64,000 bases of DNA from an uncultured Methanosarcinales archaeon (GTDB taxonomy: Archaea > Nanobdellota > Nanobdellia > Woesearchaeales > GW2011-AR9). The notes under the pieces are model-generated. The model was not told the origin of the DNA. It saw nothing but the letters and a program-made list of their open reading frames with translations, and searched no databases. Position 1 is the first letter of the stretch, and every line of letters starts with the position of its first letter. Shown one piece after another: positions 4,502 to 56,235 of the stretch. The position numbers were made by a program, and so were the translations under genes. Location: NCBI GenBank assembly GCA_964360675.1, contig CAYHXT010000001.1:10491-74490 (forward strand). The letters run 5' to 3'.

Positions 4502-5251
4502 TTGAACTTTATGATTACGTCTCAACGAGTGTCCATAGTAATTCCTTGTTATAATGAAGAAGAATCCATCCTAAACTTAACAAACCAGCTAAATTCCGCA
4601 GTAGCTGATTTAGAAAAAGATTACGAAACGGAACTTATTTTTGTTGATGACGGTTCTAAAGATAAAACTTACGAGCTTCTTAATAGCCATTATGAAAAAA
4701 ATAAGAATGTTAAAATAATCAAGCATGAAAGAAATTACAATCTGGGGGCTGCTTTAAGGACCGCGTTTAAATTTTCAACTGGAGACATCATCGTTCCATT
4801 AGATTGCGACTGTACTTTTCCTCCGGGAAAAATCAGAAATCTTCTTGAATTGTTGGACGAAGAAACCGATATTGTAAATGCTTCTCATTATCATCCACAG
4901 GGGACTTTAGATGATGTTCCGCTTTACCGGCGCATATTAAGCAAAACCGTTTCAGAAATGTACCGAGCGGTCTTAGGAAGAAGGGATATCTATACTTACA
5001 CCGGCATCTTTAGAGCTTACAAAAAAAATGTTCTGGAAAATATTAAATTTAAATCTAATGGGTTCCTTTGCAGCGCCGAGATATTAAGCTATGCTATTCT
5101 GAAAGGATATAAAATTAAAGAGTACCCCACCACCCTTTACACCAGGCAATATGGAAAATCAAGCATAAAATTATTCCGGGTAGTGATGAGCCATCTTAAC
5201 TTCATTTTCAAGTTAACTTATATCAAACTATTGAAACAAAAAAACCAATGA
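4502..5251 (+). CDS. GT2 family glycosyltransferase (DPM1/ArnC-like polyprenyl-phosphate sugar synthase type)
   Basis: N-terminus VSIVIPCYNEEESI, an FVDDGSKD motif and a DxD-like LDCD motif. Soluble, 249 aa. Confidence 0.7.
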   Translation: MNFMITSQRVSIVIPCYNEEESILNLTNQLNSAVADLEKDYETELIFVDDGSKDKTYELLNSHYEKNKNVKIIKHERNYNLGAALRTAFKFSTGDIIVPLDCDCTFPPGKIRNLLELLDEETDIVNASHYHPQGTLDDVPLYRRILSKTVSEMYRAVLGRRDIYTYTGIFRAYKKNVLENIKFKSNGFLCSAEILSYAILKGYKIKEYPTTLYTRQYGKSSIKLFRVVMSHLNFIFKLTYIKLLKQKNQ

Positions 5252-6342
5252 AAATTGCTATTGTGGTTGGGACTCGTCCGGAAATAATCAAAATGAGCCC
5301 CATAATCAGATATTGTACTAATAATCAATTTGATTTTTTCATCATACATACGGGTCAACATTATTCTTATAATATGGATAAAATTCTTTTTGAAGAATTA
5401 GGCCTACCCGAAGCCAAATATCATTTGGAAGCCGGTTCGGGTTCCCATGGCAGACAGACGGCGGCAATCTTGGATCGGATAGAAGAAGTTTTAGTAAAAG
5501 AAAATCCGTATATCGTTTTAGTTGAGGGCGACACCAATGGTGTTCTTGCAGGAGCTCTAGCGGCATCCAAATTGCATATTAAAGTTGGGCATATAGAAGC
5601 CTGTTTGCGCAGTTACGATAATCTTATGCCTGAAGAAATAAACCGGGTTATAGCAGATCATACGGCTAATTACTTGTTCGCACCCACAGAAGATTCTAAA
5701 ATAAACGGATTAAAGGAAAATATTCCTGAACATAAAATATTTGTTACCGGCAATACCATCGTCGATGCCGTTTTTCAGAATATTAAATTAGCAGAACGCA
5801 GGGAAGATATTTTTAACAAACTGGGAACTAAAAAAAATGAGTATATTTTACTAACCCTGCATAGGCAGGAAAATGTAGATGATCAGAAAAGATTAAAAGA
5901 GATTCTTTTGGGATTAAAGTTGCTTTATCGGGAACTAAACCTAAATATTATTTATCCCATCCATCCGCGTGCGGAAAAAATGCTAAAAACTTTCAATTTA
6001 GAAATACCTGAAGGTTTAATTTTGGTTCCCCCCGCAAGTTTTCTCGATTTCCTTAATTTGGAAAAGAATGCCCGGTTAATTCTCACCGATTCAGGCGGTG
6101 TGCAAGAGGAAGCCTGCATATTAAAAGTTCCTTGCGTAACTTTAAGATACAACACTGAAAGGCCAGAGACTTTAAGAGTAGGGAGTAACATCCTTGCAGG
6201 AACGGATCCTCTAAAAATAGTTGAATGCAGCAAAAAAATGATTGCCGTCACGAAAGATTGGGAAAATCCTTTCGGCAACGGCCAAGCGACTGAAGAGATT
6301 ATGAGAATCATATCATCACAATACGTACCAAAAGAACCCTAA
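5248..6342 (+). CDS. wecB: UDP-N-acetylglucosamine 2-epimerase (non-hydrolysing)
   Basis: N-terminus MKIAIVVGTRPEIIKMSPII, followed by HTGQHY, and 364 aa length are hallmarks of this family. Its ATG overlaps the upstream stop (ATGA). Confidence 0.85.
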   Translation: MKIAIVVGTRPEIIKMSPIIRYCTNNQFDFFIIHTGQHYSYNMDKILFEELGLPEAKYHLEAGSGSHGRQTAAILDRIEEVLVKENPYIVLVEGDTNGVLAGALAASKLHIKVGHIEACLRSYDNLMPEEINRVIADHTANYLFAPTEDSKINGLKENIPEHKIFVTGNTIVDAVFQNIKLAERREDIFNKLGTKKNEYILLTLHRQENVDDQKRLKEILLGLKLLYRELNLNIIYPIHPRAEKMLKTFNLEIPEGLILVPPASFLDFLNLEKNARLILTDSGGVQEEACILKVPCVTLRYNTERPETLRVGSNILAGTDPLKIVECSKKMIAVTKDWENPFGNGQATEEIMRIISSQYVPKEP

Positions 6343-6532
6343 AATCATAGGATCTGCCTTCCCCGGTAGCAATATGCTCCCATCGCCACACTTGAATTAC
6401 TAATCTTAATTTCCATAAATAAAATAAAGGGGTGCTGATAATAAGCACAAATAAACCCAGTTAAATCTTATTTAGCTAATCAAAAGAACAGGTGAATAAA
6501 TTACAAAAATAATGCGGTGGAGGGAAAATTAA

Positions 6533-8272
6533 ATGTATATCTTAGGAATAAGCGATAGTCATGATGCTGGAGCGGCTCTTATAAAAGATGGGAAAATCAT
6601 CGCAGCTGTAAGTGAAGAGAGATTATGCCGGGAAAAATTCGCTTACGGCTTTCCTTTTAAATCCATAAAAGAAGTATTAAGGATAGTTGCCATTCGAAAA
6701 GAAGATATCTCTCATATAATCAAGGGCGGTTTGCCTTACCCCTACCTATATTCGTTTTACAACACCCGCAGAAATGGAAATAACCGCCACCTTCCAGAAA
6801 TAAAATTGGATGAGATTTACAACTCTTCTTTGTTTCATCGGACCTTCATTAATATTCTTAAAAAAAGAAAAGTTTATTCTATTCAGGAACTTAACGAATT
6901 CAAAAAGATCCGCGGTTTTAATAATGCCAGTGGCAGTTTGACAAAAAGTTCTTTACGGAAATTAGGCTTAAGGCAAAAAATTTATTTTCTAGACCACCAT
7001 TATTCTCATCTAGCTTCGGCATTTTATACTTCCGGTTTTAAAAAATCATTGATCTTTTCACTTGATTTTTCCGGCGATAACAAGTCTGGGATGGTGGGGG
7101 TAGGAGCAAAAACAAAAATTGATGTCGTTGAAGCCTTAGATGCCCAAAATTCTGTCGGCTGTTTTTATGGTTTCATAACCAAAGGGCTGGGGTTTAAATT
7201 AAATCGTCATGAGGGGAAAATCGTCGGCCTGGCCGCTTATGGCGACCCGGAAAAATTGTACCTGCAGTTCAAAAGATTCATTAAGCATCATCAATCCAGA
7301 ATTATCGTTAAAAACAGGTATCAATTATTGGCTCTCGCAGAAAAACTAAAAAACAAAGAAGCTAAAAATGTTGCCTCAACCGCCCAGAGATTATTAGAAG
7401 AAGTTACCGTAAATTGGGTGAAATTCTTCATTGAAAAATATAAAATTTACGATTTAGTTTTAACCGGGGGGGTTTTTGCCAATGTAAAACTAAACCAAAG
7501 AATCCTAGAAATTGAAGGCGTCAAAAACTTATGGATTTTCCCAAACATGGGCGACGGCGGTTTAGCTGCCGGCGCAGCTTTAGAACTTTATCACCGATTA
7601 AACAAGAATACTAAAACGTACCGGTTGCAACACGTTTACCTAGGCTCTAATTTTAGTAATGGACAGATTGAAAAAGAATTAAAAAAATTAAAAGTGAATT
7701 ACATTTACCACCAAGGCATTGAAAAAATTATTGCCCGGCTGGTCAGCCAGGGAAAAGTTGTCGCTAGATTTAACGGCGCAATGGAATACGGGCCCCGGGC
7801 GCTAGGAAACCGCTCGATCATTTACGAAGCCAAGGACCCATCTGTGAACAAATGGCTGAATGAGAGGCTGAACAGAACCGAATTTATGCCTTTTGCGCCA
7901 GCAACGTTATTTGAAGATCGAAGTAAATGTTATAAAAACATCAACGGTGCTGAACATTCAGCAGAATTCATGGCCATTACTTTTGAATGTACAGATTACA
8001 TGAAAAAAAACAGCCCCGCCGCAGTTCACGTCGATGGAACCGCCAGACCACAATTAGTCAAGAAAGAAATTAACCCGAGTTTTTATAAAATCATTCAAGA
8101 ATATAAAAAAATAGCTAAAATACCAACATTGATCAATACCAGCTTTAATATGCATGAAGAACCAATAGTATGCAGCCCTTTTGACGCTATCAGATCATTT
8201 CAACAAGGTAATTTGGATTATTTGGCTATTGGCAATTTCTTAGTGCATAATACTTTAGCCAGCAAAAAGTAA
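6533..8272 (+). CDS. NodU/CmcH-family O-carbamoyltransferase
   Basis: N-terminus MYILGISDSHDAGAALIKDGKIIAAVSEERLCREK is the signature of the carbamoyltransferase N-domain. Length is 579 aa with a C-terminal YrdC-like part. An SD (GGAGGG) sits 8 nt upstream. Confidence 0.8.
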   Translation: MYILGISDSHDAGAALIKDGKIIAAVSEERLCREKFAYGFPFKSIKEVLRIVAIRKEDISHIIKGGLPYPYLYSFYNTRRNGNNRHLPEIKLDEIYNSSLFHRTFINILKKRKVYSIQELNEFKKIRGFNNASGSLTKSSLRKLGLRQKIYFLDHHYSHLASAFYTSGFKKSLIFSLDFSGDNKSGMVGVGAKTKIDVVEALDAQNSVGCFYGFITKGLGFKLNRHEGKIVGLAAYGDPEKLYLQFKRFIKHHQSRIIVKNRYQLLALAEKLKNKEAKNVASTAQRLLEEVTVNWVKFFIEKYKIYDLVLTGGVFANVKLNQRILEIEGVKNLWIFPNMGDGGLAAGAALELYHRLNKNTKTYRLQHVYLGSNFSNGQIEKELKKLKVNYIYHQGIEKIIARLVSQGKVVARFNGAMEYGPRALGNRSIIYEAKDPSVNKWLNERLNRTEFMPFAPATLFEDRSKCYKNINGAEHSAEFMAITFECTDYMKKNSPAAVHVDGTARPQLVKKEINPSFYKIIQEYKKIAKIPTLINTSFNMHEEPIVCSPFDAIRSFQQGNLDYLAIGNFLVHNTLASKK

Positions 8273-8310
8273 AAAAATAGTAGATCATAAAACCGTAATA
8301 AATAACCCAG

Positions 8311-9201
8311 ATGAAAAAAATTCCTAAAATAATCATTGCCATTCCCGCGTACAACGAAGAAAAAACTCTTCCTTTTGTTCTGCAGGAGATAACTGATGTT
8401 ATGAGAAATACCGCATATAACTATCAAATTTTAGTGTTGGATGATGGTTCGCGAGACCACACTGTTGAAGTTGCAAAATCTTACGATGCAGTAGTTGTTT
8501 CAAACCGCAGAAATATGGGGTTAGCAGAGACTTTCAGGGTAGAAATGAGGGAATGTTTACGCTTAGGGGCGGATATAATTGTCCATACCGATGCAGACGG
8601 CCAATACCATTCTAAACATATTCCGGAATTAATCCAAAAAGTTGAACAAGGGTGCGATTTAGTTTTAGGGAGCAGATTTAAGGGAAAAATAGAAAGCATG
8701 TCTCTCTTAAAGCAATTGGGAAATATTGCCTTTGCAGAAGTATTAAGTTCCCTCACCAAAGTGCGTATAACCGACTCAACTACGGGGTTCAGGGCATTTA
8801 CAGCTGAAGTTGCCAGAAATATAAATTATATTAACACTTTTACCTACACCCAGGAGCAGATCATCAAAGCTTCTAAGCAGGGTTTTAGAATAGCTGAAAT
8901 CCCCATCACTGCCAGAAAAACACGAGAAAGCAGGTTATTTAAGAATCCGTTTCAGTTTGCTTGGAGAGCCTGGATTAATATCTTTAGGATTTATCGTGAT
9001 TACGAACCTCTGATGTTTTTTGGAAGAATCGGCTTTGTGTTTCTTTCTTTTGGCGGGATAGTCGGGTTATGGTTAATATACAGATTTATTACTCTTGGAT
9101 CAGTTGGAAGATATCCCTCCACCATATTAAGCGCGTTACTTATAATGGTGGGGGTGCAAATAATATTATTTGGTTTCTTGGCTGATATGTTGCATAAATA
9201 A
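8311..9201 (+). CDS. GT2 glycosyltransferase with C-terminal TM helices (DPM1/GtrB-like polyprenyl-phosphate sugar transferase)
   Basis: IIIAIPAYNEEKTL and VLDDGSRD motifs. The C-terminal 70 aa is hydrophobic (two TM), typical of GtrB/ArnC. Confidence 0.75.
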   Translation: MKKIPKIIIAIPAYNEEKTLPFVLQEITDVMRNTAYNYQILVLDDGSRDHTVEVAKSYDAVVVSNRRNMGLAETFRVEMRECLRLGADIIVHTDADGQYHSKHIPELIQKVEQGCDLVLGSRFKGKIESMSLLKQLGNIAFAEVLSSLTKVRITDSTTGFRAFTAEVARNINYINTFTYTQEQIIKASKQGFRIAEIPITARKTRESRLFKNPFQFAWRAWINIFRIYRDYEPLMFFGRIGFVFLSFGGIVGLWLIYRFITLGSVGRYPSTILSALLIMVGVQIILFGFLADMLHK

Positions 9202-9282
9202 TTATTTGCCTTATACTCAGTTTAATAATATTTAAAAACTATTTAAAGACTATTTCAGCAATAGTTTTATCGGTGCAAATAC

Positions 9283-12168
9283 ATGGAAAAAGTAGTTAGG
9301 AAGATTGCTTATATCGGGGTAGTCTGCGACCTTTTCCATTACGGCCATCTACGTTCCATTCAATTTGCCAAATCTATCTCTGATTACTTGGTTTGCGGGG
9401 TGTTTACTGATGAAGTAGTAGAAGGATATCGGGTTAAGCCGATGGCTAATTATGAAGAGAGGAAAGCCGTGGTGGAAAGTCTTCGCGATGTGGATGCGGT
9501 TGTAGTTCAGGAACAAAGGGACCCCACTAAAAATTTACAACTCATTCATGAAGAGTTTCCAGAGGCAGAAATAATTTTAGTGCATGGTGATGATCTGCAT
9601 TATGTTCACGGAGAAGATTATATTAAAAGCATCGGCGGAAAAGTGGTAAAACACCCTTACTATCCCCGCCTTTCAAATTTTAAGATCATAAATTATCTGT
9701 TGGAAAATAAAGATAAATTCAAAGACATCACGGATTTTACTGCTTTTATAACTGAGAAAGATAAACTTGATGCCGAAGCGCACCAAGGAAATAAAGTGAT
9801 TATCTCTTCTAAAGCAGATACTCTTAAAGCTCTGCAGCCGCTATTGAAAAAATCTAAAATCGAGCCGTTGTATAGTTTTACTATCTCCGACTGGAAGAAT
9901 CAGAAAGAGCAGGTTCTGGCGAGAATACAAGAATTATTTTCTCCTTTTCTGATCGTGGTCAGAAGCTCTGCGGTAAAGGAAGATACTTTCGAACAATCCA
10001 TGGCCGGCTGTTTTGAAAGCGTGCTTAACGTTGATTCTGAAGAAAAAGCAAAAGTGGAAGAAGCAATAAATAAAGTATCCATATCTTACAAAGAAAAAGA
10101 TGCGGAAACTTCTTTCAATCAGATACTTGTTCAAAAGCAGACAGATGATGTCTCTATGAGCGGAGTGGTTTTTACCAGGACTTTAAGCAAAAACGGACCC
10201 TATTACGTCATAAATTACGACGATACTACCGGAAGCACCGATTCAGTGACTGCTGGCAGGGAAAACAAGACCCTCTACATAAGCCGATTCGCCTCTCAAA
10301 TCCCGAAAGAAATGGATGGTTTGATGAGTGCAGTAAGGGAAATTGAAAATATAATCCCTTCCTTCCCGTTAGACATTGAATTTGCCGTGCAGAGCGATGG
10401 AAGCATAGTTATTTTTCAAGTGCGCCCTTTAGCTGCGAATATATACAAGGAAAAATCTGACGAAGAAGTGAAACGGATGATTGATTCCTTAAAATTAACC
10501 TTTCAAAAACATACTGGTCGGCATCCGCATCTGGCGGGAGAAATAACTTTCTTTGGCGATATGCCCGACTGGAATCCGGCAGAAATAATCGGCGACAGGC
10601 CAAACAATCTGGATTATTCCTTATATGGCTATCTAATCACCGATAGCGCATGGCATGAAGCCAGGACTTCACAGGGATATTACAATGTCAATCCGGCCAG
10701 GTTGGTGGAGCTGTTTGGCAACAAACCTTATGTCAATGTGAGAAACACTTTCAATTCTTTTATACCCTCTTCAATTTCTCCGCAGCTGCGCGAAAAGTTA
10801 GTCTCATTTTACTTAGATAAATTGCGCAGAAATCCGCATCTTCAGGACAAGGTTGAATTTGAAGTTCTCTATACCTGTTACGACCTAAATTTTGACCAAA
10901 GGTCTAAAGAATTAGCTGGGGCGGGATTTTCACTCGAAGATATCGCCCAATTAAAAAGCGCTTTGTTATATCTGACCAACCATCTGATCACAGATGCGCC
11001 TAAATCGACAGATGACGATTTAAAAATCGTTTTCAGCATGAATGAATCACGTAAATCAATTTCTACTGTAATCGCAGAATCCGGCAGATCGCAGGAATTG
11101 ATTGCTGAATGTAAGGCCCTTCTAGACCAGTGCAGAAAGAAAGGGACGGTGCAGTTCTCTCGATTGGCAAGGCTGGGCTTCATCGCCAAAATAATATTTC
11201 GGAGCATGGTGGATAGAAAAGTTATAACTCAACAATTTTATGACCAAAAATACAAATCTATAAGCACCGTAGCTACAAAGATCAATGACGATTTTAAGAA
11301 ATTAATGAAGGGGGAATTATCAAAAGAAAATTTCATCAAGGAATATTATCATCTCCGGCCGGGAACATATGATATCACCAGCCCGCGTTATGATGCTAAT
11401 AAGGAACTCATCAACACGTTTAAAATAGTTGGGGGTGGGCTGGAAAAAGAAAGGCTGGAACTAACTAAAGAAGACGATATTAAAATTACCGCTGCATTGC
11501 AGGCGGAAGGATTATTGTGCAATGCAGAGCAATTCCTTAATTTTGTAGAATTATCAACGCAAGCAAGAGAGCTTTCTAAATTTGAATTTACCAAGAATCT
11601 CAGCGATGCTTTAGAATTACTTGCAGAAGCTGCAGAAAGGATGGGGCTTGCTAGAAAAGAGGTTGCTACACTTGATATTAATGATATTTTTTCCAGTATT
11701 TCCGTGCCGCAAACAGAAGAGATTGTAACCGGATGGAAAAAACTTATCCAGAAACACAGTTCCGAAAAAGCGCTGCATGAAAAATTAGTTCTTCCTCCAA
11801 TTATATTTTCCAGCAATGATTTTGAAGTAATACGGTTTTATCTGGCAAAACCTAATTTCATAACTCATAAAAATATTGAGAGTAAAATCGTCCACGTGAA
11901 CGACTTAAAAGACAAAATTGTCCCTGATCTTGAAGGTTGCGTGGTGGTTTTAGAAAATGGAGATCCGGGCTACGATTGGATATTTACCAGAAATCCGGCC
12001 GGATTGATTACGAAATATGGGGGGATCGCTTCGCATATGTCTATAAGGTGCGCAGAATTCGGCATCCCTGCGGCGATTGGCTGCGGCGAACTGATATTCA
12101 ATAAGCTTAAAACTGCGGAAAAAGTCATTCTGGATTGTAAATCAAATAAAATAATCCCTTTACCTTAA
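9283..12168 (+). CDS. fusion protein: N-terminal cytidylyltransferase (HxGH, TagD-like) fused to a PEP-synthase/rifampin-phosphotransferase-like kinase (PPDK_N ATP-grasp + phosphohistidine swivel domain)
   Basis: Residues 10-140: AYIGVVCDLFHYGHLRSIQFAK (cytidylyltransferase HxGH). Residues about 220-420: VRSSAVKEDTFEQSMAGCFESVLNV (PPDK_N signature). C-terminus: ITKYGGIASHMSIRCAEFGIPAAIGCG (PEP-utilisers phosphohistidine motif). The kinase part resembles the Cj1418 L-glutamine kinase architecture. Confidence 0.7.
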   Translation: MEKVVRKIAYIGVVCDLFHYGHLRSIQFAKSISDYLVCGVFTDEVVEGYRVKPMANYEERKAVVESLRDVDAVVVQEQRDPTKNLQLIHEEFPEAEIILVHGDDLHYVHGEDYIKSIGGKVVKHPYYPRLSNFKIINYLLENKDKFKDITDFTAFITEKDKLDAEAHQGNKVIISSKADTLKALQPLLKKSKIEPLYSFTISDWKNQKEQVLARIQELFSPFLIVVRSSAVKEDTFEQSMAGCFESVLNVDSEEKAKVEEAINKVSISYKEKDAETSFNQILVQKQTDDVSMSGVVFTRTLSKNGPYYVINYDDTTGSTDSVTAGRENKTLYISRFASQIPKEMDGLMSAVREIENIIPSFPLDIEFAVQSDGSIVIFQVRPLAANIYKEKSDEEVKRMIDSLKLTFQKHTGRHPHLAGEITFFGDMPDWNPAEIIGDRPNNLDYSLYGYLITDSAWHEARTSQGYYNVNPARLVELFGNKPYVNVRNTFNSFIPSSISPQLREKLVSFYLDKLRRNPHLQDKVEFEVLYTCYDLNFDQRSKELAGAGFSLEDIAQLKSALLYLTNHLITDAPKSTDDDLKIVFSMNESRKSISTVIAESGRSQELIAECKALLDQCRKKGTVQFSRLARLGFIAKIIFRSMVDRKVITQQFYDQKYKSISTVATKINDDFKKLMKGELSKENFIKEYYHLRPGTYDITSPRYDANKELINTFKIVGGGLEKERLELTKEDDIKITAALQAEGLLCNAEQFLNFVELSTQARELSKFEFTKNLSDALELLAEAAERMGLARKEVATLDINDIFSSISVPQTEEIVTGWKKLIQKHSSEKALHEKLVLPPIIFSSNDFEVIRFYLAKPNFITHKNIESKIVHVNDLKDKIVPDLEGCVVVLENGDPGYDWIFTRNPAGLITKYGGIASHMSIRCAEFGIPAAIGCGELIFNKLKTAEKVILDCKSNKIIPLP

Positions 12169-12169
12169 A

Positions 12170-12850
12170 ATGTTATGCGCTATTTCGTTACGGCAGGAAA
12201 AGAACAAGCATGGCGAGGATATTGATGTTTTAGAGCAAAGGTATATCCACTATTTTGAAAAATTCGGCTTGAAACTGCTGCTGATACCTAATGGTCATGA
12301 TGTCGATTATTACTTTGAAAAATTTCCAATAGAAAGGGTTGTCCTGAGCGGAGGAAACGATGTTGATCCGCAGATGTATGGCGGAAAACGTGAAGAAGGG
12401 ATGTCTATAGTTTCCGAACGCGATATAACAGAAAGAAGGATAGTAGAATTAGCTGTCAAGAAGAAGATACCTCTACTGGGAATATGCAGGGGGATGGAAT
12501 TTTTGAATATATATTTTGGCGGAAAATTGATTAATATCAAGAATGAATATGGCAAAGAGGCGCATCTGCCGGGGAAAGAGCATCCTCTGCACATACTTGA
12601 TGGCCAAGAGCTTCTCAGAAAAGAAGTTAGAGTAAACTCTTTCCATAATCAAGCTCTTACTGAGAAAGAGCTTTCTTCAAACTTGCAGGCATTTGCAGTC
12701 AGCGATGAAGGGATAATAGAAGGATTTAATCATTCTTCGTTGCCATTAGTTGGCGTACAGTGGCATCCTGAACGAGAAAGCCCAGATGAAGAATTTAATG
12801 CGCAATTAGTGAAAGCTTTTGTTGAAGGAAAATTGTGGTGGAAGAGATGA
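12170..12850 (+). CDS. class I glutamine amidotransferase-like hydrolase (peptidase C26 / gamma-glutamyl hydrolase type; Cj1417-like)
   Basis: Nucleophile motif LLGICRGMEFL and a C-terminal VQWHPE His-Pro-Glu motif. 226 aa. Confidence 0.6.
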   Translation: MLCAISLRQEKNKHGEDIDVLEQRYIHYFEKFGLKLLLIPNGHDVDYYFEKFPIERVVLSGGNDVDPQMYGGKREEGMSIVSERDITERRIVELAVKKKIPLLGICRGMEFLNIYFGGKLINIKNEYGKEAHLPGKEHPLHILDGQELLRKEVRVNSFHNQALTEKELSSNLQAFAVSDEGIIEGFNHSSLPLVGVQWHPERESPDEEFNAQLVKAFVEGKLWWKR

Positions 12851-13665
12851 AAGCCATTATTCTCGCAGCAGGTATGGGTACCCGCTTAGGCAAATACACC
12901 GAAGACCTTCCGAAATGCATGTTAACTTTTGATGGAAAACCATTGATCGAGAGGCAGGTTGAGACCCTGCGTAGTGCAGGCATCACTGATATTTCTATAG
13001 TTAGGGGATATAAATCTGAGAAAATAAGCCTTGCCGGAGTAAAATATTACCACAATCCAGATTTTGCGACAACTAACATGGTAGAAACTTTATTCTGCGC
13101 AGAAAAAGAGCTGGATGAAAAAGAAGATGTTTTGATATGTTATGCTGATATCATCTATGAACCTAAAGTTCTTCAATCAATAATTGAATCTGGTGCGCAG
13201 ATAGGCGTTACGGTCGACAATGATTATTTGGATTATTGGAAATCAAGGATGGATAATCCGGAATCGGACATGGAAAGTTTAGTGGTTGAGGATGGAATGA
13301 TAACCGAACTCGGCGATACTAAATGTGTCAGAGACAAAGCTGAAGTAAGATACGTTGGATTGATTAAGCTCTCCAAAGAAGGAGTGCGGAAACTAAAGGA
13401 AACATATCATTATCATAAACAACAGCACTTTCATAAAGATGAGCCTTGGCTGAGATCAAAATCTTTCAAGAAAGCATACATGACCTGCATGCTGCAGGCA
13501 TTGATTAACGCAGGGCACGAAGTTAAGCCGATTGTGATTTCGCGGGGCTGGTTAGAATTCGATACTGTTGAAGATTATGAGAAATACAGCAGATGGTTGG
13601 AAGAAGGGACGTTAAGCAGATTTATCAACTTGCAGTTAAACAATAGTATTTCACAACGTTTTTAA
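12847..13665 (+). CDS. sugar-phosphate/phospho-amine nucleotidyltransferase (NTP_transferase fold; LicC/Cj1416-like cytidylyltransferase candidate)
   Basis: MKAIILAAGMGTRLG N-terminal motif. Start chosen at the ATG overlapping the upstream stop (ATGA); the ORF track also allows a GTG at 12835. Confidence 0.6.
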   Translation: MKAIILAAGMGTRLGKYTEDLPKCMLTFDGKPLIERQVETLRSAGITDISIVRGYKSEKISLAGVKYYHNPDFATTNMVETLFCAEKELDEKEDVLICYADIIYEPKVLQSIIESGAQIGVTVDNDYLDYWKSRMDNPESDMESLVVEDGMITELGDTKCVRDKAEVRYVGLIKLSKEGVRKLKETYHYHKQQHFHKDEPWLRSKSFKKAYMTCMLQALINAGHEVKPIVISRGWLEFDTVEDYEKYSRWLEEGTLSRFINLQLNNSISQRF

Positions 13666-13689: not shown

Positions 13690-15957
13690 GTGTCTAAAGG
13701 CATGGAAAAAAAGGTAAAGATAATTGTAACTATAGGGCCATCTACTAATTCTGAAGAAGCGATGCTTAAGATTAAGGATAAAGGCGTTGATTTTGTCAGA
13801 GTAAATATGTCTCATTCTGATATCAATTACCTTAAGGATACCATTGCCTTAGCCAAGAAAGTAGGTCTCCCTTTTGTAATTGATACTGAAGGATCACAGG
13901 TAAGAACCGGCGAGCTGGGCACTTCTACAATCGAATTGGAAGATAATGAAGAAATTAAAATTTATAATCATAAGATAGTCGGAGATAAAGACAAAATCAA
14001 CTTAACTCCTTATTCGGTAGTAGACCAATTAGAAGTGGGCGATTTAATCCTAGTAGATTTTGACACCGCAATATTGCGTATTTCTGACACGGCTACAATC
14101 AATCGGGGATATGTCACTGCCAGAGCTATCACCGGGGGAATAATCGGCAAAAATAAAGCAGTGATAATTGATCCCATATCCAATAAAAAAATAATCCTTC
14201 CCACTCTTTCGGAGAAGGATTATCAATCTATCCAAGTGGGCCTGCAGGAAGGGATTGGGCATATTGCCGCATCATTTATGCGTTCGGGCAAAGCAGTAGA
14301 TGAAGTGCGTAAAGCTACCCAAAATACCATGAAGATAATCTCAAAAGTTGAATGTATAGATGCCTTAGAGAACATTAATGATATTATTCGTAAATCTGAC
14401 TACCTGCTGATTGACAGGGGAGATCTCAGCAAAGAGATCCCCATTGAAAAAATTCCGTTAACTCAGAAGATGATAATCAACAAGGCAAAGAAGTATGGTG
14501 TCGGCGTATTTGTGGCTACTAATCTTCTGGAAACCATGATAGATCATAAGAAACCTACCAGGGCGGAAGTACATGATGTCCTAAACACCATTGTAGATGG
14601 TGCGGGAGGATTAGCATTAGCTGCAGAGACAGCTATCGGAAAATATCCCCTGGCTTGTATTAACATGCTGAACAAAATAATAAAGCATGCTCAACAGGTT
14701 AATGTTGAAGAATTCAGGGATAAAGAAGATAAATTTGTAGAAAAACTTGAAAAGAGCAATTATCTGCTTGATTTCGATATGTCTTCTTCTTTAGTCGCTC
14801 CCCACGGCGGTAAATTAGTTGATCGTATGGTTAAAGAAATGCCTTCCTCGAAATATCTTCATTCCCTGCCAGTTATAAAATTAAATGAAAGTCATCGGCG
14901 CGATGTGGAACAAATAGCAATAGGTACTTACAGCCCGATAGATGGTTTTATGGGAAAAGAAGATTTCCAATCGGTATTAGACAGAATGAGGCTGGCTAAC
15001 GGCCTGGTGTGGCCAATGCCCATAACTCTTGATGTCCCGGAGGATCAAGCAGATATGCTGCTATTGGGTTCTGAAATAGCTTTATCTGGCGATGAGGGCG
15101 AAATCATTGCTTTATTAGCCCTTCAGGAAAAATATACTTTTGATAAATCAGAGACTGCTCAAAAATTATATGCTACTGACAGCTTAGATCATCCTGGAGT
15201 AAAGATGATTATGGGAATGAATTCGGTTCTTCTCGCCGGACCAATAACTTTACTTAAAAGGATCAGGAATGAATTTAAGGAATATGAAATAACCCCTAAA
15301 CAAGCCCGCCGCCTTTTTGAAGAAAGAGGATGGGAGAAAGTAGTAGGTTTCCACACCAGAAATGTGATACATCGCAGTCATGAATTCATCCAGATGGAAG
15401 CATTGCAGAAAAGCAATTGCGACGGCCTTTTTGTACATCCTGTAGTTGGCAAGAAGAAATCAGGCGATTTCAGTGCTAAATTCATAATCAAAGCTTATGA
15501 TCTGATGATAAAAGATTTTTATCCCAAGAATAAAGTTATTTTTGGGACGTTTTCAACTTATTCCAGATATGCCGGACCGAGAGAAGCGCTGTTCACGGCT
15601 TTATGCAGGAAAAATTTCGGATGCAGCCATTTCATCGTAGGCCGTGATCATACCGGAGTGGGAAATTTCTACCATCCCAAGGCATCTCATAATATTTTTG
15701 ACCGCTTTCCTGATTTAGGCATCGTACCTATTCGTTTTGATAATGTGTTCTATACTAAAAAAGAAGGGCGTTATATGCACGAGCAGGAATATCCAAATCA
15801 CCCTGAAGAGGATAAGCTGCTTATCAGCGGCACTCAGGCCAGAAAAATGTTCGAGAACGGAGAACTGCCGCCCGGCTGGTTCATGCGTCCAGAGATTTCG
15901 CAGTTAATTATTGGTGCGGTCAAAAATGGAGAAGAAGTTTTTGTAAAAGATGTTTAA
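13690..15957 (+). CDS. fusion: pyruvate-kinase-like barrel domain (N-terminal 350 aa) + ATP sulfurylase (sulfate adenylyltransferase-like) domain
   Basis: N-terminal part: IIVTIGPS...VDFVRVNMSHSD...FVIDTEGSQVRTG, LIDRGDLSKEIPIEKIPLTQKMII and PTRAEVHDVLNTIVDGAGGLALAAETAIGKYP, all pyruvate kinase motifs. C-terminal part: LVAPHGGKLVDRMV, GFHTRNVIHRSHEFIQ (QTRN..HRAH) and GRDHTGVG (GRDHAG), the ATP sulfurylase signatures. Confidence 0.7.
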   Translation: MSKGMEKKVKIIVTIGPSTNSEEAMLKIKDKGVDFVRVNMSHSDINYLKDTIALAKKVGLPFVIDTEGSQVRTGELGTSTIELEDNEEIKIYNHKIVGDKDKINLTPYSVVDQLEVGDLILVDFDTAILRISDTATINRGYVTARAITGGIIGKNKAVIIDPISNKKIILPTLSEKDYQSIQVGLQEGIGHIAASFMRSGKAVDEVRKATQNTMKIISKVECIDALENINDIIRKSDYLLIDRGDLSKEIPIEKIPLTQKMIINKAKKYGVGVFVATNLLETMIDHKKPTRAEVHDVLNTIVDGAGGLALAAETAIGKYPLACINMLNKIIKHAQQVNVEEFRDKEDKFVEKLEKSNYLLDFDMSSSLVAPHGGKLVDRMVKEMPSSKYLHSLPVIKLNESHRRDVEQIAIGTYSPIDGFMGKEDFQSVLDRMRLANGLVWPMPITLDVPEDQADMLLLGSEIALSGDEGEIIALLALQEKYTFDKSETAQKLYATDSLDHPGVKMIMGMNSVLLAGPITLLKRIRNEFKEYEITPKQARRLFEERGWEKVVGFHTRNVIHRSHEFIQMEALQKSNCDGLFVHPVVGKKKSGDFSAKFIIKAYDLMIKDFYPKNKVIFGTFSTYSRYAGPREALFTALCRKNFGCSHFIVGRDHTGVGNFYHPKASHNIFDRFPDLGIVPIRFDNVFYTKKEGRYMHEQEYPNHPEEDKLLISGTQARKMFENGELPPGWFMRPEISQLIIGAVKNGEEVFVKDV

Positions 15958-15974: not shown

Positions 15975-16559
15975 ATGGAAGATACCAACAATCCTAAATT
16001 ATTGATCGTCTTCTGCGGCCTTTCCGGCTCCGGAAAAAGTTTTAATGCCAGAAAGCTTCAGCAACATCTTCCTGGATATACTATTGTTGGTCCCGGCATT
16101 CTGCGTGAACAATTAAACATCAAAACCTACAGTAGAAAAGATACCCCCAAACTTCTTGCCAAAGTTATCGAACAAATCGAAGAAAACCTAAGAGAGAATA
16201 AAGGGTCTATTGTCGATGCTAACCTTAAAAGCCTGGATGTAAGGCAATTTTTCCACGACACAGCTAAAGAGCTGGGTATAGGTTCCGTTCTTATTGAAAC
16301 CTATTGTTCTTCCGAAACAACCAAAAGCCGCATGGAAAAAAGGGAGCAAAGAACTCTGGCAGAGAATCCCAAACATTTTACTGTTTATCTAGAACAAAAA
16401 CGGTCATGGCAAAACCCCTTATTAGACTTAGAATTAGAAAGGAACAATCATGTTTCGCTAATCCGCATAAACACCGAAAATAAAATGACTGACCAAATTA
16501 AGATAAATGAAAACAACAAATCGATGGTCAATAAAATAATGGAAATACTTAAAGAATGA
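15975..16559 (+). CDS. P-loop kinase, APS-kinase/CysC-like (candidate APS kinase or Cj1415-like CDP-amidate 3'-kinase)
   Basis: P-loop VFCGLSGSGKSF resembles the APS kinase GLSGSGKST loop. 194 aa. The remainder is not strongly CysC-like. Confidence 0.5.
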   Translation: MEDTNNPKLLIVFCGLSGSGKSFNARKLQQHLPGYTIVGPGILREQLNIKTYSRKDTPKLLAKVIEQIEENLRENKGSIVDANLKSLDVRQFFHDTAKELGIGSVLIETYCSSETTKSRMEKREQRTLAENPKHFTVYLEQKRSWQNPLLDLELERNNHVSLIRINTENKMTDQIKINENNKSMVNKIMEILKE

Positions 16560-16560
16560 A

Positions 16561-17502
16561 TTATTTCTTCTGCGCTAAAAACACGACACTATTGCCGAAT
16601 TTATAAATTCCGGGAATGTTCTTCTTATTACTGGCTGATTGCAGGTATCTGTCTAATCTTTTGGCAAACGGGAACAACACCCGTTTCTTAGTAAGGTATC
16701 CCGCCCCGTCATAACGTACAATATTGAATTGTTCCAGCTGAAATAATTTTTTTAATCTGCCAAAGGACAAAGCATTTTTACGCACTAAACCTATTTGTTT
16801 GTGCTGCTGCAAGCTTTCCTTATATTTTTCTGCTTTAGAAAAAACTGAAGATAGCGCAGCAGAAAAAAAATAAGGGATATAAAACAGCGGGGTATCCTGC
16901 CATCGTAATTCATAACGCCTTCGCGTAGTAAGATAATATAGCGACCTTATCCATTTTAAGGGCCCATCAATACTGCTGATGCCATACATATTGCGCTGTG
17001 CCAAAATGAAATGGCCGTTTGGTTTTAAAACACGTTTTACTTCACTAAAACACACTTCTGGAAACTGCAAATATTGTAAGAATCCCAATCCTGCAACACA
17101 ATCAAAAGAATTATTTGGAAAATCTAATTTTTCCGCGTTACCGATGAGGAATTCATAATTGCCCTTCGCATCGGCGGTAGATGTTTTCTGGCAGTTCTTG
17201 ATAGCAATTGCCCTTAATTTATTAGATATATCAATCCCAACTAAATTATGTCCTCTGGCATAAATCTTGGCAGAAGTTATACCTGCTCCGTATCCTAATT
17301 CCAGGACCCGCGCTCCCTGAGGCAAGTTTATAGAATCTAAATATTCTAAAACCGTTTCCTCCCTTCCCCGTAATCTATTCCCGTTGTAATTATCTTCATA
17401 ATAATGCTTTTCCCAGCGGCCTAAATCTTTCTCTTCATTCCACTTCTTTATTGCCTGTTGATTTTGATTATAATCCATAGTATTACCCTTCCTGCGCATC
17501 AA
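16561..17502 (-). CDS. class I SAM-dependent methyltransferase
   Basis: VLELGYGAGITSAKI motif I and a downstream VGIDIS acidic motif. 313 aa. Confidence 0.7.
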   Translation of the reverse strand: MMRRKGNTMDYNQNQQAIKKWNEEKDLGRWEKHYYEDNYNGNRLRGREETVLEYLDSINLPQGARVLELGYGAGITSAKIYARGHNLVGIDISNKLRAIAIKNCQKTSTADAKGNYEFLIGNAEKLDFPNNSFDCVAGLGFLQYLQFPEVCFSEVKRVLKPNGHFILAQRNMYGISSIDGPLKWIRSLYYLTTRRRYELRWQDTPLFYIPYFFSAALSSVFSKAEKYKESLQQHKQIGLVRKNALSFGRLKKLFQLEQFNIVRYDGAGYLTKKRVLFPFAKRLDRYLQSASNKKNIPGIYKFGNSVVFLAQKK

Positions 17503-18464: not shown

Positions 18465-19298
18465 ATGTTTTCTGCCCTTCCCATAAAAATCAGAGCAAAT
18501 CTTGCCCGTCCAGTTCTTGAAGCAGCAATTGCTGCCGGAAAGGAAATTTTACAAATATATAATCAAGATTTTAAAATTACATTTAAACAGCAACAAGAAC
18601 CGCTGACAGAAGCCGATCTTGTCAGCAATAAAATTATCTTAAAAGCGCTTAAGAAAACAAATATTGCCATTCTTTCAGAAGAAACTAAGGATAATTTAGA
18701 ACGAGTTGACCAGGATCTTCTATGGATTGTTGATCCATTAGATGGGACCCGGGAGTTTATCAACAAAAATGGAGAATTCTCTGTTATGGTTGGATTAGCA
18801 GAGAAAGGTATTCCGGTCCTTGGTATCATCTATCAGCCTACAACTAAAGATCTTTTTCTCTCCTCTAAAGGCGAAGGCGCATATGAAAAAACTACGGAAG
18901 GCTGGAAAAGGCTCAAAACCACCGCCATCACTACTTTGTCGGAAGCGCGCGGCATTTTAAGCAGAAATAATCTTTCTGAGGAAGAGGCCAGATTTTTAGA
19001 AAGAAATAACATCAATAAGTTTACGCAAAAAGGCAGCGCTGGGTTAAAAGCCGGGGAAATCTGCCGCGGCAACGCCGAATTTTATTTTAACAGCACAAAT
19101 AAACTCAAAGAATGGGATACCTGCGCGGCCCATAGCCTGATTCTAGAGGCGGGGGGCAACCTGACTACATTCAGGGGAGAGGAAATAACTTATAACAAAA
19201 AGGACCCGATACATCATGGAGGGGTTCTCTTTACCAATAATATAATCTTACATGAAAATCTACGGAAGAAAATAATTTCTAAATATAAGAATCTTTAA
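18465..19298 (+). CDS. cysQ: 3'(2'),5'-bisphosphate nucleotidase (inositol monophosphatase family)
   Basis: WIVDPLDGTREF metal-binding motif of the IMPase/CysQ family. Translationally coupled to the sulfotransferase, with a 2-nt gap. Confidence 0.75.
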   Translation: MFSALPIKIRANLARPVLEAAIAAGKEILQIYNQDFKITFKQQQEPLTEADLVSNKIILKALKKTNIAILSEETKDNLERVDQDLLWIVDPLDGTREFINKNGEFSVMVGLAEKGIPVLGIIYQPTTKDLFLSSKGEGAYEKTTEGWKRLKTTAITTLSEARGILSRNNLSEEEARFLERNNINKFTQKGSAGLKAGEICRGNAEFYFNSTNKLKEWDTCAAHSLILEAGGNLTTFRGEEITYNKKDPIHHGGVLFTNNIILHENLRKKIISKYKNL

Positions 19299-23293: not shown

Positions 23294-23896
23294 ATGAAAA
23301 AATTAATCATCCGGTTCGACAAAAATAAATGTGTGGGGAATGGTGGTTGTGTAGCTGCGGCTCCAGATTTCTTTAAATTAGAGGAAGATAAGTCTGTATG
23401 TATCGGTGCAAAAGTAGATAAAAAAACCAATATTTATACTTTAATCATCCCTTGCGATGATGATACTGCCAAACAGATCGTTGCAGCAGGAGAAAGCTGT
23501 CCGGTAAACGCGATAGGCGTCTACGATGCTGATACGAAGCGGGAAATCGTCAGCACCAGCGTAGATACACTTAATACTAAAGAAATATTTGCTACTTATG
23601 ACGATGCAAAAGAATTTGTTCTCGATAAAGAAGGATATTTCCTGATAAGGCTTGATAAGGGACGTAAGCTGATTGAAGTCGCATTCTGCAACGAGAAAAA
23701 TAAAATCGTATTAACTGTCCGCGGAAAAAAGCCGATAGATATTTATCATACTATCTTGAATAAAGAAAAGCTCCCCATCAGGAAAGAACATGCTGCATAT
23801 CTCGGCCGGGAACTGCAGAAGGCGTATATAGCGCTGGAGAACGGCTTAAATTATGTACAAGACGACGAACTTGTTCTGACAAAACTAAATAAATGA
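23294..23896 (+). CDS. ferredoxin-domain protein (mono-cluster 4Fe-4S-like N-domain + uncharacterised C-domain)
   Basis: CVGNGGCVAAAP...C...CP cysteine pattern in the first 75 aa. 200 aa. Sits next to B12-radical SAM genes. Confidence 0.45.
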   Translation: MKKLIIRFDKNKCVGNGGCVAAAPDFFKLEEDKSVCIGAKVDKKTNIYTLIIPCDDDTAKQIVAAGESCPVNAIGVYDADTKREIVSTSVDTLNTKEIFATYDDAKEFVLDKEGYFLIRLDKGRKLIEVAFCNEKNKIVLTVRGKKPIDIYHTILNKEKLPIRKEHAAYLGRELQKAYIALENGLNYVQDDELVLTKLNK

Positions 23897-23912
23897 TTAT
23901 TTGAGAATCAAA

Positions 23913-25448
23913 TTATTTCCGCTTCATTTTATTTTTTGATAATTTATTTCTTATCAGTTTCTTAAAGTTGAAAGTGTAATATCCTATATAATTAAAGATA
24001 CGATAATCTGTCTTCTTTAATGCGACCAGTAATTCAAATGGAAGGGGCGGTATAAGGAAAAATCCCTTATATGTCTTTGAAGTAAGAAAGAAATTTACCA
24101 TCCATCGTGGATATAATTGCAGACTTTTCATCATAAATTGAAAATTTTTAATCAACCTTGCTGCTTTTTTATCTTTTACTGAACCGCCGGTAATGTAAGT
24201 GTTCTGCGCTCCTTGTTCAGCTTCTTTGACTTGTTCATCAGTCGCGCTAGTTTTCTGCAGAACCGAAGTGGAAGGGAAATATTGCAGCCAGTAACAAGTA
24301 ATCCTTACCGGCCTGTATTTGTTGAATAAACGTATCGCAAATTTCATGTCCTCTTCAGTTTCACCAAAGCCGAACATCATGTCGACATAGAAATTAAGCT
24401 TATATTTGCTGCAGGCCTTAAGAGCATTGATGATATCTTCAGTAGTCTCAATTCTAGTCATCATTTTTCTCTTAATTTCCTGATTGAAAGTCTGAATGCC
24501 CATCTCTAACTTATAACATCCGCTTTCTTTCAATAGTTTTGCTATTTCATCATCAACGTGAAGCGGATGAGTTATGGCTCGGTAAGGGACATTAATCTCT
24601 AGTTTATATTTTGGCAAAAATTTACGCAGCCATTCTTTATCATGGGTGAATATGTCATCTTCAAAACTGACATACTTGAACTTGTATTTCTGTTTAGCTA
24701 GTCGCAATTCTCCTAAGACATGTTCCGGGCTTCTTCTGCGGACGTATCTGTGCGCATCTTTTACATATAATTTACGCAGAAGATTATGGCAGCAGAAACT
24801 ACATGCAAAAAGGCACCCTCTGGCAGTTGCAATCATGTAATGCTTCATTGGCACATGGGGCGCAAACAACGCTTTATTTGGATAAGGTAAAGAATCTAAA
24901 TCTTGTTTAAGAGGCCTTACTGGATTTCCCATAGCCTTACCGTCTTTCTTATACCATACATTGGGAATAGCATAATTAGGTTCCTTCTTTTGTATTGAAG
25001 CCAGCAGTTCCAGAAGAGAATCTTCCGATTCTCCAACTACAACGTAATCAACACAGTCTTCCTGTACAGTTTTCTCAGGGACTGAGGTAGGATGAATGCC
25101 TCCGAAAATAATCGGTATATTTTTCGCTTGTTTCATTTTGCGTGCTATATCTAAAGCCCATTGATTACAGTCTGAAAATACCGAAAATAATACTATGTCC
25201 GGATTGGTCGCCAGTACATCTTCTACGATGTTTTTATATTTGAATAATTTTGCAAGGAAAGGTATTTGAAGATAATACTTGTCATCAAACAAAGCAGGAT
25301 CAAAAACCAACGCAGTTTGGTGTCCATGTTTCTCCAACATAGCGGAGAGACTTTCGATGCCGAGATTCTCAGCGCCCATATATAAGAAAGTGACTTTCAT
25401 CTTTTTAGGGGAAGAATACTTGTTTTTAAACTTTTCTAGTCTTTGCAA
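23913..25448 (-). CDS. B12-binding (cobalamin) radical SAM enzyme
   Basis: CLFACSFCCH, a CxxxCxxC radical SAM cluster motif, preceded by a B12-binding-like N-domain. 511 aa. The start may be the internal MKVTFLY. Confidence 0.75.
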   Translation of the reverse strand: MQRLEKFKNKYSSPKKMKVTFLYMGAENLGIESLSAMLEKHGHQTALVFDPALFDDKYYLQIPFLAKLFKYKNIVEDVLATNPDIVLFSVFSDCNQWALDIARKMKQAKNIPIIFGGIHPTSVPEKTVQEDCVDYVVVGESEDSLLELLASIQKKEPNYAIPNVWYKKDGKAMGNPVRPLKQDLDSLPYPNKALFAPHVPMKHYMIATARGCLFACSFCCHNLLRKLYVKDAHRYVRRRSPEHVLGELRLAKQKYKFKYVSFEDDIFTHDKEWLRKFLPKYKLEINVPYRAITHPLHVDDEIAKLLKESGCYKLEMGIQTFNQEIKRKMMTRIETTEDIINALKACSKYKLNFYVDMMFGFGETEEDMKFAIRLFNKYRPVRITCYWLQYFPSTSVLQKTSATDEQVKEAEQGAQNTYITGGSVKDKKAARLIKNFQFMMKSLQLYPRWMVNFFLTSKTYKGFFLIPPLPFELLVALKKTDYRIFNYIGYYTFNFKKLIRNKLSKNKMKRK

Positions 25449-25604
25449 TAATTAAAAATTAGCAAGAATGTTTAGATTTTATTTCTTAAAATAATATCTT
25501 TGTGTTGCTAATTAGACCTAACTGATCTCATCACGTATCACATCACCAAAATGCAAAGCGCTTCTACGCCGTTGTCGCTTTACCAATTATCCTTTTTATC
25601 TATT

Positions 25605-56213: not shown

Positions 56214-56235
56214 TCAAGTGGTAAGGGAGAGCGTA

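Follow-up and report, generated by a model that had tools for sequence, protein, structure and literature searches.

A pyruvate kinase-ATP sulfurylase fusion in an archaeal surface-glycan island and its possible role in sulfate activation

Main finding

Contig CAYHXT010000001.1 of an uncultured archaeon (GenBank assembly GCA_964360675.1; Methanosarcinales by name, Woesearchaeales by GTDB lineage) encodes a protein that joins the catalytic barrel of pyruvate kinase (PK) to an ATP sulfurylase (ATPS) on one chain. It lies in a stretch of 64,000 nucleotides (positions 10,491 to 74,490, forward strand; hereafter the window), the whole of which is one surface-glycan island containing glycosyltransferases, sugar-nucleotide enzymes, flippases, NeuB and radical S-adenosylmethionine (SAM) enzymes. 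We hold with moderate confidence that the fusion, PK-ATPS, is a bifunctional enzyme whose PK half would use phosphoenolpyruvate (PEP) to recycle ADP to ATP, thereby pulling the synthesis of 3'-phosphoadenosine 5'-phosphosulfate (PAPS) for surface-glycan sulfation. The observed basis is the identity of the domains, the conservation of catalytic residues, the repeated linkage of PK to ATPS and a sulfation gene context. An earlier note, made from the letters of the sequence, had suggested PEP-driven regeneration of ATP or removal of ADP; on comparative grounds this is now the best-supported reading, and that the PK half acts on PEP and ADP, with ADP removal as the benefit of the fusion, is still what we infer.

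Gene and domain architecture

The unbroken open reading frame (ORF) extends from 13690 to 15957 on the + strand, with 755 codons counted from its GTG. This GTG sits within a GGTG Shine-Dalgarno-like motif about 10 nt 5' of an ATG at 13702, and a database protein identical to the fusion (P0001) has 751 aa; the true start is therefore probably ATG 13702 and not GTG 13690. The gene and its parts are as follows.

13702..15957, + strand: gene of the PK-ATPS fusion, 751 aa when read from ATG 13702 (GTG 13690 opens the longest ORF)
13708..14658, + strand: pyruvate kinase A barrel and B lid, aa 7-323 (Pfam; no PK_C)
14659..14796, + strand: linker of about 35-45 aa, with predicted helices H320-334 and H339-355 and a length kept family-wide
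14797..15261, + strand: PUA_2 (ATP sulfurylase domain I), aa 370-524, with PHGG (Pfam PF14306, 164.6 bits)
15280..15912, + strand: ATP-sulfurylase catalytic domain, aa 531-741, with HTRN, HxxH and GRDHTG (Pfam PF01747, 260 bits)

All three Pfam domains score far above chance level. The PK domain (PF00224, aa 7-323, 232.6 bits) covers profile positions 2-327 of 328 and thus includes the B lid, and the scan of the fusion protein found neither PK_C (PF02887) nor the kinase domain for adenosine 5'-phosphosulfate (APS; PF01583). The joining of the two enzymes on one chain, the whole PK barrel and its lack of a C-terminal domain, all claimed in the earlier note, are borne out by the intact ORF and these matches. 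The sulfurylase half passes the curated NCBIfam cut-offs (NF003166, 442.5 versus 387; TIGR00339, 359.4 versus 322.95). All NCBIfam PK models remain under theirs, including the whole-enzyme equivalog TIGR01064 (279.9 versus 306.4), as expected because the fusion has no C-domain.

The AlphaFold2 model of the fusion is a confident single body (predicted local distance difference test 91; predicted template modelling score, pTM, 0.89). In a Foldseek search against the PDB, the PK half matches PK chains over about 350 columns (root mean square deviation, rmsd, about 3 A), and the sulfurylase half superposes on the ATPS of M. thermolithotrophicus (8a8d) with a template modelling (TM) score of 0.94 and an rmsd of 2.2 A. 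Matches in the PDB were per domain, with no solved structure covering both halves (best query-normalised TM 0.48). An assembly or frameshift artefact joining two genes, a concern of the earlier note, is practically inconceivable: the same gene with an identical ORF and the same neighbours recurs on contigs of three Hainich groundwater assemblies made separately, so that neither a frameshift nor a chimera can account for it, and more than 120 homologous fused proteins are known from NCBI, JGI, ENA and Logan sources, with linker length conserved.

The pyruvate kinase active site

The residue roles of rabbit-muscle PK are established, and they were transferred through rabbit-muscle numbering after the query had been aligned to E. 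coli PykF and G. stearothermophilus PK. These roles are partly documented in PMC4374775 and PMC8835810. The catalytic and ligand residues of the query are R37, N39, S41, D65, T66, R72, K156, K219, E221, D245, T277 and E313, which correspond to rabbit R72, N74, S76, D112, T113, R119, K206, K269, E271, D295, T327 and E363. All twelve positions are invariant in 121 homologs, except that T327 is Thr in 119 and Ser in 2, and conservation is still 96% or more among the distant representatives of 50%-identity clusters, which reach down to about 32-37% identity with the query. The catalytic Lys, Glu and Asp and the metal ligands, which the earlier note had singled out for checking, are all conserved, and a degenerate PK domain was rejected on the strength of this conservation across homologs.

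The surrounding motifs have shifted from DTKGPE to DTEGSQ, from SKIEN to SKxEC, from ARGDLGIE to DRGDLSKE, from ATQML to ATNLL and from LSGE to LAAE. In the monovalent-cation site the ligands N39, S41, D65 and T66 are kept; position 114 is Glu and position 117 is Gln, neither the Glu of K+-dependent PKs nor the Lys of K+-independent ones. Gln at 117 has been found in some K+-independent crenarchaeal PKs (PMC4374775). Judged from the alignments, this is what would be expected of a functional active site under selection and with some specialisation, rather than of a scaffold.

A large family with several forms of linkage

The PK + PUA_2 + ATP-sulfurylase architecture is present in all 120 best matches at 90% clustering (61-100% identity), for which the hosts named are Nanoarchaeota, Woesearchaeota, Patescibacteria, Promethearchaeota and Anaerolineae. 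An exhaustive HMMER search over 1.84 billion cluster representatives found both halves in at least 84 of the 150 best 50%-identity representatives, down to about 32-37% identity to the query. The combination, called unusual in the earlier note, is thus not rare, and PK-ATPS is a large, old family. Fused and unfused classes were taken from BLAST and motif classification; a global alignment of the 150 representatives gave noisy pocket calls because proteins joining APS kinase to ATPS and truncated sequences misalign in it. A genome-collection scan with a single fusion protein returned four loci, two of which are plain sulfurylases.

Fused homologs carry the database labels 'sulfate adenylyltransferase' or 'pyruvate kinase', and full-text searches of the literature found no paper describing a PK-ATPS fusion, in agreement with the remark of the earlier note that it was not known from characterised enzymes. 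PK-ATPS is already in the databases, undescribed and uncharacterised as far as could be found, and adds to the theme of helper domains fused to ATPS, namely APS kinase, pyrophosphatase, APR and the CysN GTPase.

The linkage takes several forms. The order is reversed to ATPS-PK in one protein (P0185, locus L016), which requires a separate fusion event; another fusion (P0134) retains the full PK including PK_C, and a third (P0152) carries Phosphodiest (residues 1-446), PK and ATPS on one chain. In the split form (L015, L018, L019) a gene for a 344-345-aa PK barrel stops 1 nt before the gene for a sulfurylase with His in its sulfate-binding motif (His-type, described below). A PK barrel is fused or immediately upstream at all 13 distinct His-type sulfurylase loci examined. 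Three stand-alone sulfurylases of the HTRN type were checked as counter-examples and set aside: they are split PK partners (L015, L018/L019) or, at L020, a seemingly stand-alone sulfurylase (P0246) that is a real fusion whose PK half the gene caller had overlooked.

The PK halves fall into three signature types, DTEGxQ, DT[RQ]GxE with DRFDLG, and DLPGxK, the last being the L113/K117 signature of K+-independent PKs. Because domain orders and PK types differ and fission or fusion occurs, the comparison argues that ordinary PK chemistry is the property that the sulfurylase would have recruited. The number of independent fusion events suggested by these differences is provisional.

Near its reversed fusion, L016 has, in the region 5704-12093, an ABC anion-uptake system (PBP_like_2, two permeases and an ATPase) and CysD/CysN-like genes (PAPS_reduct and GTP_EFTU), so that the organism would have two different sulfate-activating systems. 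The closest named genome match, L001 (CAYHKV010000063.1; 89% identity, same gene order), is binned as 'uncultured Methanosarcinales archaeon', and the other named relatives belong to DPANN or the candidate phyla radiation. Mis-binning of this contig or lateral transfer may account for the assignment of L001.

An altered sulfate pocket

The sulfurylase half had been credited in the earlier note with every ATPS motif. HxxH (H561/H564), PHGG and GRD (G651-R652-D653-H654) are present, as are R557 and N558 of the RNP loop and SGTxxR (S713-G714-T715..R718), but two motifs depart from the canonical form: HTRN replaces QxRN (H555, codon 15352-15354) and GRDHTG replaces GRDHAG (T655, codon 15652-15654). 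The Gln of QxRN is His in all 121 close homologs and in 53 of the 54 two-domain representatives whose motif could be detected; in 120 of the 121, Thr takes the place of the Ala of GRDHAG, and farther fused members have Thr, Ser or Ala in this loop, with GRDHAG or GRDHSG occurring. Near the pocket, IHHAIM has become LFTALC, with F635, T636 and C639 invariant. Stand-alone ordinary sulfurylases from the same search carry Gln and Ala; two Acidobacteriota loci have QTRNP, and one of these (L003) also has GRDHAG. Within the sample, His-type sulfurylases are PK-associated in every case.

When APS is bound, its sulfate oxygens are held by three groups, namely the side chain of the Gln, the Arg and the main-chain NH of the Ala (PMC3779200, PMC6607087), and the QxRN and GRDHAG loops have been described as strictly conserved (PMC3779200). 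The specific unexpected finding from the alignments is thus a family-wide swap of both sulfate-sandwiching residues, tied to PK association, which poses a structure-function question about a motif that the literature calls strictly conserved. Higher sulfate affinity, altered release of APS and a different anion are all possible consequences.

Gene neighbourhood in the window and in relatives

The fusion gene is flanked in the window by the following genes.

9283..12168, + strand: cytidylyltransferase-like domain fused to a PRK05849-type PEP-utilising kinase (PRK05849, 843.6 bits versus 501)
12170..12850, + strand: Peptidase_C26/GATase-like amidase, a weak match to the gamma-glutamyl-CDP-amidate hydrolase (Cj1417 equivalog), 93.1 bits versus 250
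12835..13665, + strand: MobA-like nucleotidyltransferase (NTP transferase), directly upstream of the fusion, with generic family matches only
15975..16559, + strand: 194-aa P-loop kinase (AAA_33/KTI12), candidate 3'-kinase, a function inferred from position only
16561..17502, - strand: SAM methyltransferase, kept beside the block in L002 and L013
17653..18462, + strand: sulfotransferase (Sulfotransfer_1)
18465..19298, + strand: CysQ-like 3'(2'),5'-bisphosphate nucleotidase (Inositol_P family; TIGR01331, 183 bits, under the 228.8 cut-off)

The evidence for an operon consists of short or overlapping gene junctions; promoter and terminator scans over 9-19.5 kb gave chance-level results that were uninformative on operon structure. 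The 194-aa kinase holds the slot that a canonical APS kinase occupies in the syntenic relative L013, and a 75%-identical copy is found in L001. BLAST and hhalign comparisons with APS kinases aligned only its GLSGSGK P-loop, and no relative was found in the PDB. From its position, the kinase appears to have displaced the canonical APS kinase of this slot, and it may stand in, without being orthologous, for APS kinase or for a Cj1415-type kinase.

Across relatives, APS kinase, CysQ and sulfotransferases are recurrent partners of PK-ATPS, always in glycan clusters, with one or more of them in every lineage sampled. A fused APS kinase is seen in L002, in L014 and in some 9 of 120 close homologs (P0121 being among the PK-ATPS-APS kinase triple fusions), and a nearby one in L008, L011, L013, L015 and L020; CysQ is found in the window, L011 and L014, and sulfotransferases in the window, L002, L009, L011, L012 and L017. 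The three genes directly upstream of the fusion in the window form a trio that accompanies PK-ATPS at 4 of 13 loci (window, L001, L002, L013), all of one subclade. Because the sulfation genes recur and the trio is limited to this subclade, the gene context ties the family-wide function to PAPS-type sulfation. PK-ATPS would accordingly indicate investment in sulfated surface glycans, possibly with phosphoramidate decoration in addition in the subclade of the window.

The O-methyl phosphoramidate (MeOPN) pathway of Campylobacter jejuni leads finally to a nucleotide donor that, in analogy to PAPS, is 3'-phosphorylated, and its 3'-kinase, Cj1415, is an APS-kinase homolog. PRK05849 is presumably the family of the L-glutamine kinase Cj1418. 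The trio resembles Cj1418, Cj1417 and Cj1416 of this pathway (Cj1415-Cj1418; PMC6429109), and similar genes have been reported in archaeal elements (10.1101/2024.11.05.622173). No APS-kinase homolog of the Cj1415 type was found among the neighbours of the fusion in the window, and the MeOPN pathway itself has neither sulfurylase nor PK. By analogy, the trio is probably a subclade-specific addition that would provide a second anionic decoration on the logic of the MeOPN pathway.

The protein encoded at 9283..12168 has an extra N-terminal cytidylyltransferase-like domain (aa ~6-140, with the HxGH motif as FHYGH), which suggests that kinase and nucleotidyl-transfer steps may be combined on one chain, though a separate NTP transferase is also encoded. 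In L013 (2496-5555) a homolog of the separate MobA-like NTP transferase of the window precedes PK-ATPS in frame on a single chain (P0054, 1019 aa); this fusion is known from a single Logan contig, and a lost stop codon or a sequencing error is possible. Phosphodiest genes (alkaline-phosphatase superfamily) recur directly upstream of PK or PK-ATPS (L008 8748-10004; L015 3580-4968 and 7670-9094; L018 2727-5968; L016 10241-10966) and tend to occur where CysQ is not seen; a role as a PAP- or PPi-hydrolysing (or transfer) partner is speculative. In L001, PK-ATPS is followed by the gene of a small PQ-loop membrane protein (4728-5021), and in L011 the APS kinase begins with a fused PQ-loop domain (6201-6992); the latter is a hint that the PAPS module may be tethered to the membrane or connected with a transporter.

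Proposed function

In the proposed module, PK-ATPS, a 3'-kinase, a sulfotransferase and a CysQ-type phosphatase for 3'-phosphoadenosine 5'-phosphate (PAP) would together supply PAPS within a surface-glycan biosynthesis island, the 3'-kinase being a canonical APS kinase in relatives and the non-canonical P-loop kinase in the window. The sulfurylase would convert ATP and sulfate to APS and pyrophosphate (PPi), the 3'-kinase would form PAPS and ADP from APS, and the PK domain would at once convert this ADP with PEP to ATP; the net reaction would be sulfate + ATP + PEP -> PAPS + PPi + pyruvate. The unfavourable sulfurylase equilibrium would thus be pulled from the ADP side while the local ATP/ADP ratio stays high, and ADP removal would relieve both the dead-end E-ADP-APS trap of APS kinase and the occupancy of the sulfurylase site by ADP.

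The proposal builds on known biochemistry. ATP sulfurylase catalyses a strongly endergonic reaction, which APS kinase and the hydrolysis of PPi normally draw forward (PMC3734648), and fusions of ATPS to pyrophosphatase have been read as a means of displacing this equilibrium (PMC2275785). The ADP that APS kinase releases traps this enzyme in a dead-end E-ADP-APS complex (PMC3734648, PMC9885120) and occupies the sulfurylase site in nearly the same way as APS (PMC3734648), and in-vitro PAPS synthesis nearly failed without ATP regeneration by PK and PEP (PMC9885120).

Sulfate activation is thermodynamically among the hardest steps of core metabolism. Three ways of overcoming this are known: hydrolysis of PPi, immediate 3'-phosphorylation and coupling to GTP through CysN; PEP via PK, if the proposal is true, would be a fourth. 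Hosts of PK-ATPS include DPANN archaea and Patescibacteria, whose energy metabolism is minimal and for which a locally low ADP and high ATP level may matter most. A pull from the ADP side is plausible for such hosts, and might be especially useful where PPi cannot be kept low.

Several points weigh against this proposal. ADP and ATP form a diffusible pool that does not strictly need a fused PK, so that the advantage of the fusion is a matter of argument, and simple ATP recycling does not explain the altered sulfate pocket (H555, T655). The PK active site has family-specific fixed substitutions (K114E, P116S, E117Q, N272C, A292D, G297S, I298K/R, Q328N and S361A, the S361 position being mostly Ala in the family) that may bear on the choice of substrate. 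No canonical APS kinase was found in the window, so that PAPS formation here depends on an uncharacterised kinase. Finally, L017 has a stand-alone PK barrel of the same clade in a sulfotransferase cluster, with no sulfurylase on the 11.8-kb contig.

Alternative explanations

Signature changes co-occur in the two active sites (DTEGxQ, DRGDLS[KR]E and ATNLLE in PK; HxRN and GRDH[T/S]G in the sulfurylase), which leaves a small but appreciable probability that PK-ATPS is a PEP-driven anion-activating machine of a new kind, in which PEP cleavage is directly coupled to APS formation or another oxyanion is activated. The enzyme would be a PEP-powered counterpart of the CysN GTPase in the former case; in the latter, a PAPS-like donor would be passed to glycans by the neighbouring sulfotransferase-fold enzymes.

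Taken as a separate explanation, altered anion chemistry is unlikely. It holds that the His/Thr 'sulfurylase' adenylylates phosphoramidate (from phosphoglutamine), selenate, thiosulfate or phosphate and that PK serves this reaction, and it is prompted by the near-universal replacement of both sulfate-sandwiching residues, the trio that immediately precedes the fusion gene at four loci (window, L001, L002, L013), and the NTP transferase fused in P0054. However, the trio is missing from 9 of 13 loci, while every lineage has one or more of APS kinase, CysQ and sulfotransferases; the sulfurylase half passes curated sulfate adenylyltransferase cut-offs and superposes closely on 8a8d; and the Arg of QxRN, HxxH, GRD and SGTxxR are intact. 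Nor is the Thr obligatory, because distant fused members carry GRDHAG or GRDHSG. The suggestion of the earlier note that the neighbouring genes point to phosphoramidate or another non-sulfate anion is therefore disfavoured family-wide.

It is likewise improbable that PK serves the glycan island broadly, as a general kinase making nucleoside triphosphates (NTPs) from diphosphates (NDPs) or in managing a PEP/pyruvate pool shared with NeuB-type synthases. PKs accept several NDPs, the islands hold many NTP transferases and PEP-consuming NeuB genes, and the stand-alone barrel of L017 lies in a glycan cluster with no visible sulfurylase. The fused or adjacent partner of PK at the 13 sulfurylase loci examined is nevertheless the sulfurylase every time, in both orders, and in no case just an NTP transferase or NeuB; the sole NTP-transferase fusion, P0054, still includes ATPS.

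Fungal ATP sulfurylases carry a degenerate, inactive APS-kinase-like allosteric domain, and the PK half, which has no C-domain and several unusual substitutions near its active site, could by the same token be a non-catalytic scaffold or a PEP-sensing regulatory domain. We think this quite unlikely: all phosphoryl-transfer and metal ligands are invariant in each of the three PK types and over a range of identity from 100% to about 35%, which would not be expected of a scaffold.

Direct coupling of PEP cleavage to APS formation, comparable to that of GTP in CysDN, or sulfuryl or unusual phosphoryl transfer on APS-like ligands, is very unlikely when considered by itself. PK is also credited with a slow sulfuryl transfer from sulfoenolpyruvate, on which a search of the available papers found nothing. 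Besides the paired signature changes, the confident and rigid two-domain body of the model is compatible with coupling, though not a demonstration of it, and the reversed fusion of L016 adjoins CysD/CysN-like genes, which belong to a known energy-coupled sulfurylase. The split operons (L015, L018) and the three PK types suggest instead ordinary, separable activities.

Comparison with known systems

To our knowledge, no characterised PAPS synthase has a PK domain. Bifunctional PAPS synthases (metazoan PAPSS, Aquifex 2gks and the Penicillium/yeast type) also activate sulfate on a single chain, joining ATPS to APS kinase, an arrangement that the PK-ATPS-APS kinase proteins of L002, L014, P0121 and others extend; the window protein, in contrast, has no APS-kinase domain and its neighbouring kinase is non-canonical. 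The fusion of ATPS to inorganic pyrophosphatase in stramenopiles and haptophytes (PMC2275785) resembles PK-ATPS in combining a Sat/MET3-type sulfurylase with an enzyme that removes a by-product. The pyrophosphatase, however, hydrolyses PPi, the direct product, whereas PK would act on the ADP of the next step and spend PEP; PK-ATPS also differs in its prokaryotic hosts, its glycan-sulfation context and its altered sulfate pocket.

CysDN meets the same thermodynamic problem at the cost of a further high-energy phosphate, that of GTP, but has an unrelated fold (PAPS_reduct-like CysD and GTPase CysN) and couples allosterically within one reaction, whereas direct coupling in PK-ATPS is hypothetical. 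In-vitro PAPS cascades (PMC9885120) use the same activities, ATPS, APS kinase and PK with PEP, as engineered separate enzymes rather than a natural fusion; PK was required there against ADP build-up and the E-APS-ADP dead-end complex. PK-ATPS would offer a compact natural template for such PAPS-regenerating biocatalysts.

The closest solved relative of the sulfurylase half is 8a8d (341 bits), which has QTRN and GRDHAG. Those of the PK half are 2e28 and E. coli PykF (1pky/4yng), with about 180-189 bits over the A and B domains; unlike the PK half, the solved PKs carry DTKGPE, SKIEN, ARGDLG, ATQML and a C-domain.

Other features of the island

No tRNA genes were found across the 64 kb. Several multidomain sugar-nucleotide enzymes are encoded on the + strand: a fusion of CMP-sugar synthetase, HAD phosphatase and NeuB (56179-58317, 712 aa), a fusion of a C-methyltransferase and a GDP-mannose-dehydratase-type SDR (40430-42673, 747 aa), and an NTP transferase joined to a phosphomannomutase-like HAD and a mannose-6-P isomerase C-terminal domain (30312-32099, 595 aa). 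The stretch 23294-26894 contains two B12-binding radical SAM genes and, next to them, the gene of a ferredoxin-like protein that has a DUF4346 pterin-binding-like domain. A DegT/DnrJ-type sugar aminotransferase (36132-38432, + strand) is split by an intein (Intein_splicing/HINT, aa ~190-581), and in the relative L018 (11829-14549) an intein lies within a B12-binding radical SAM gene.

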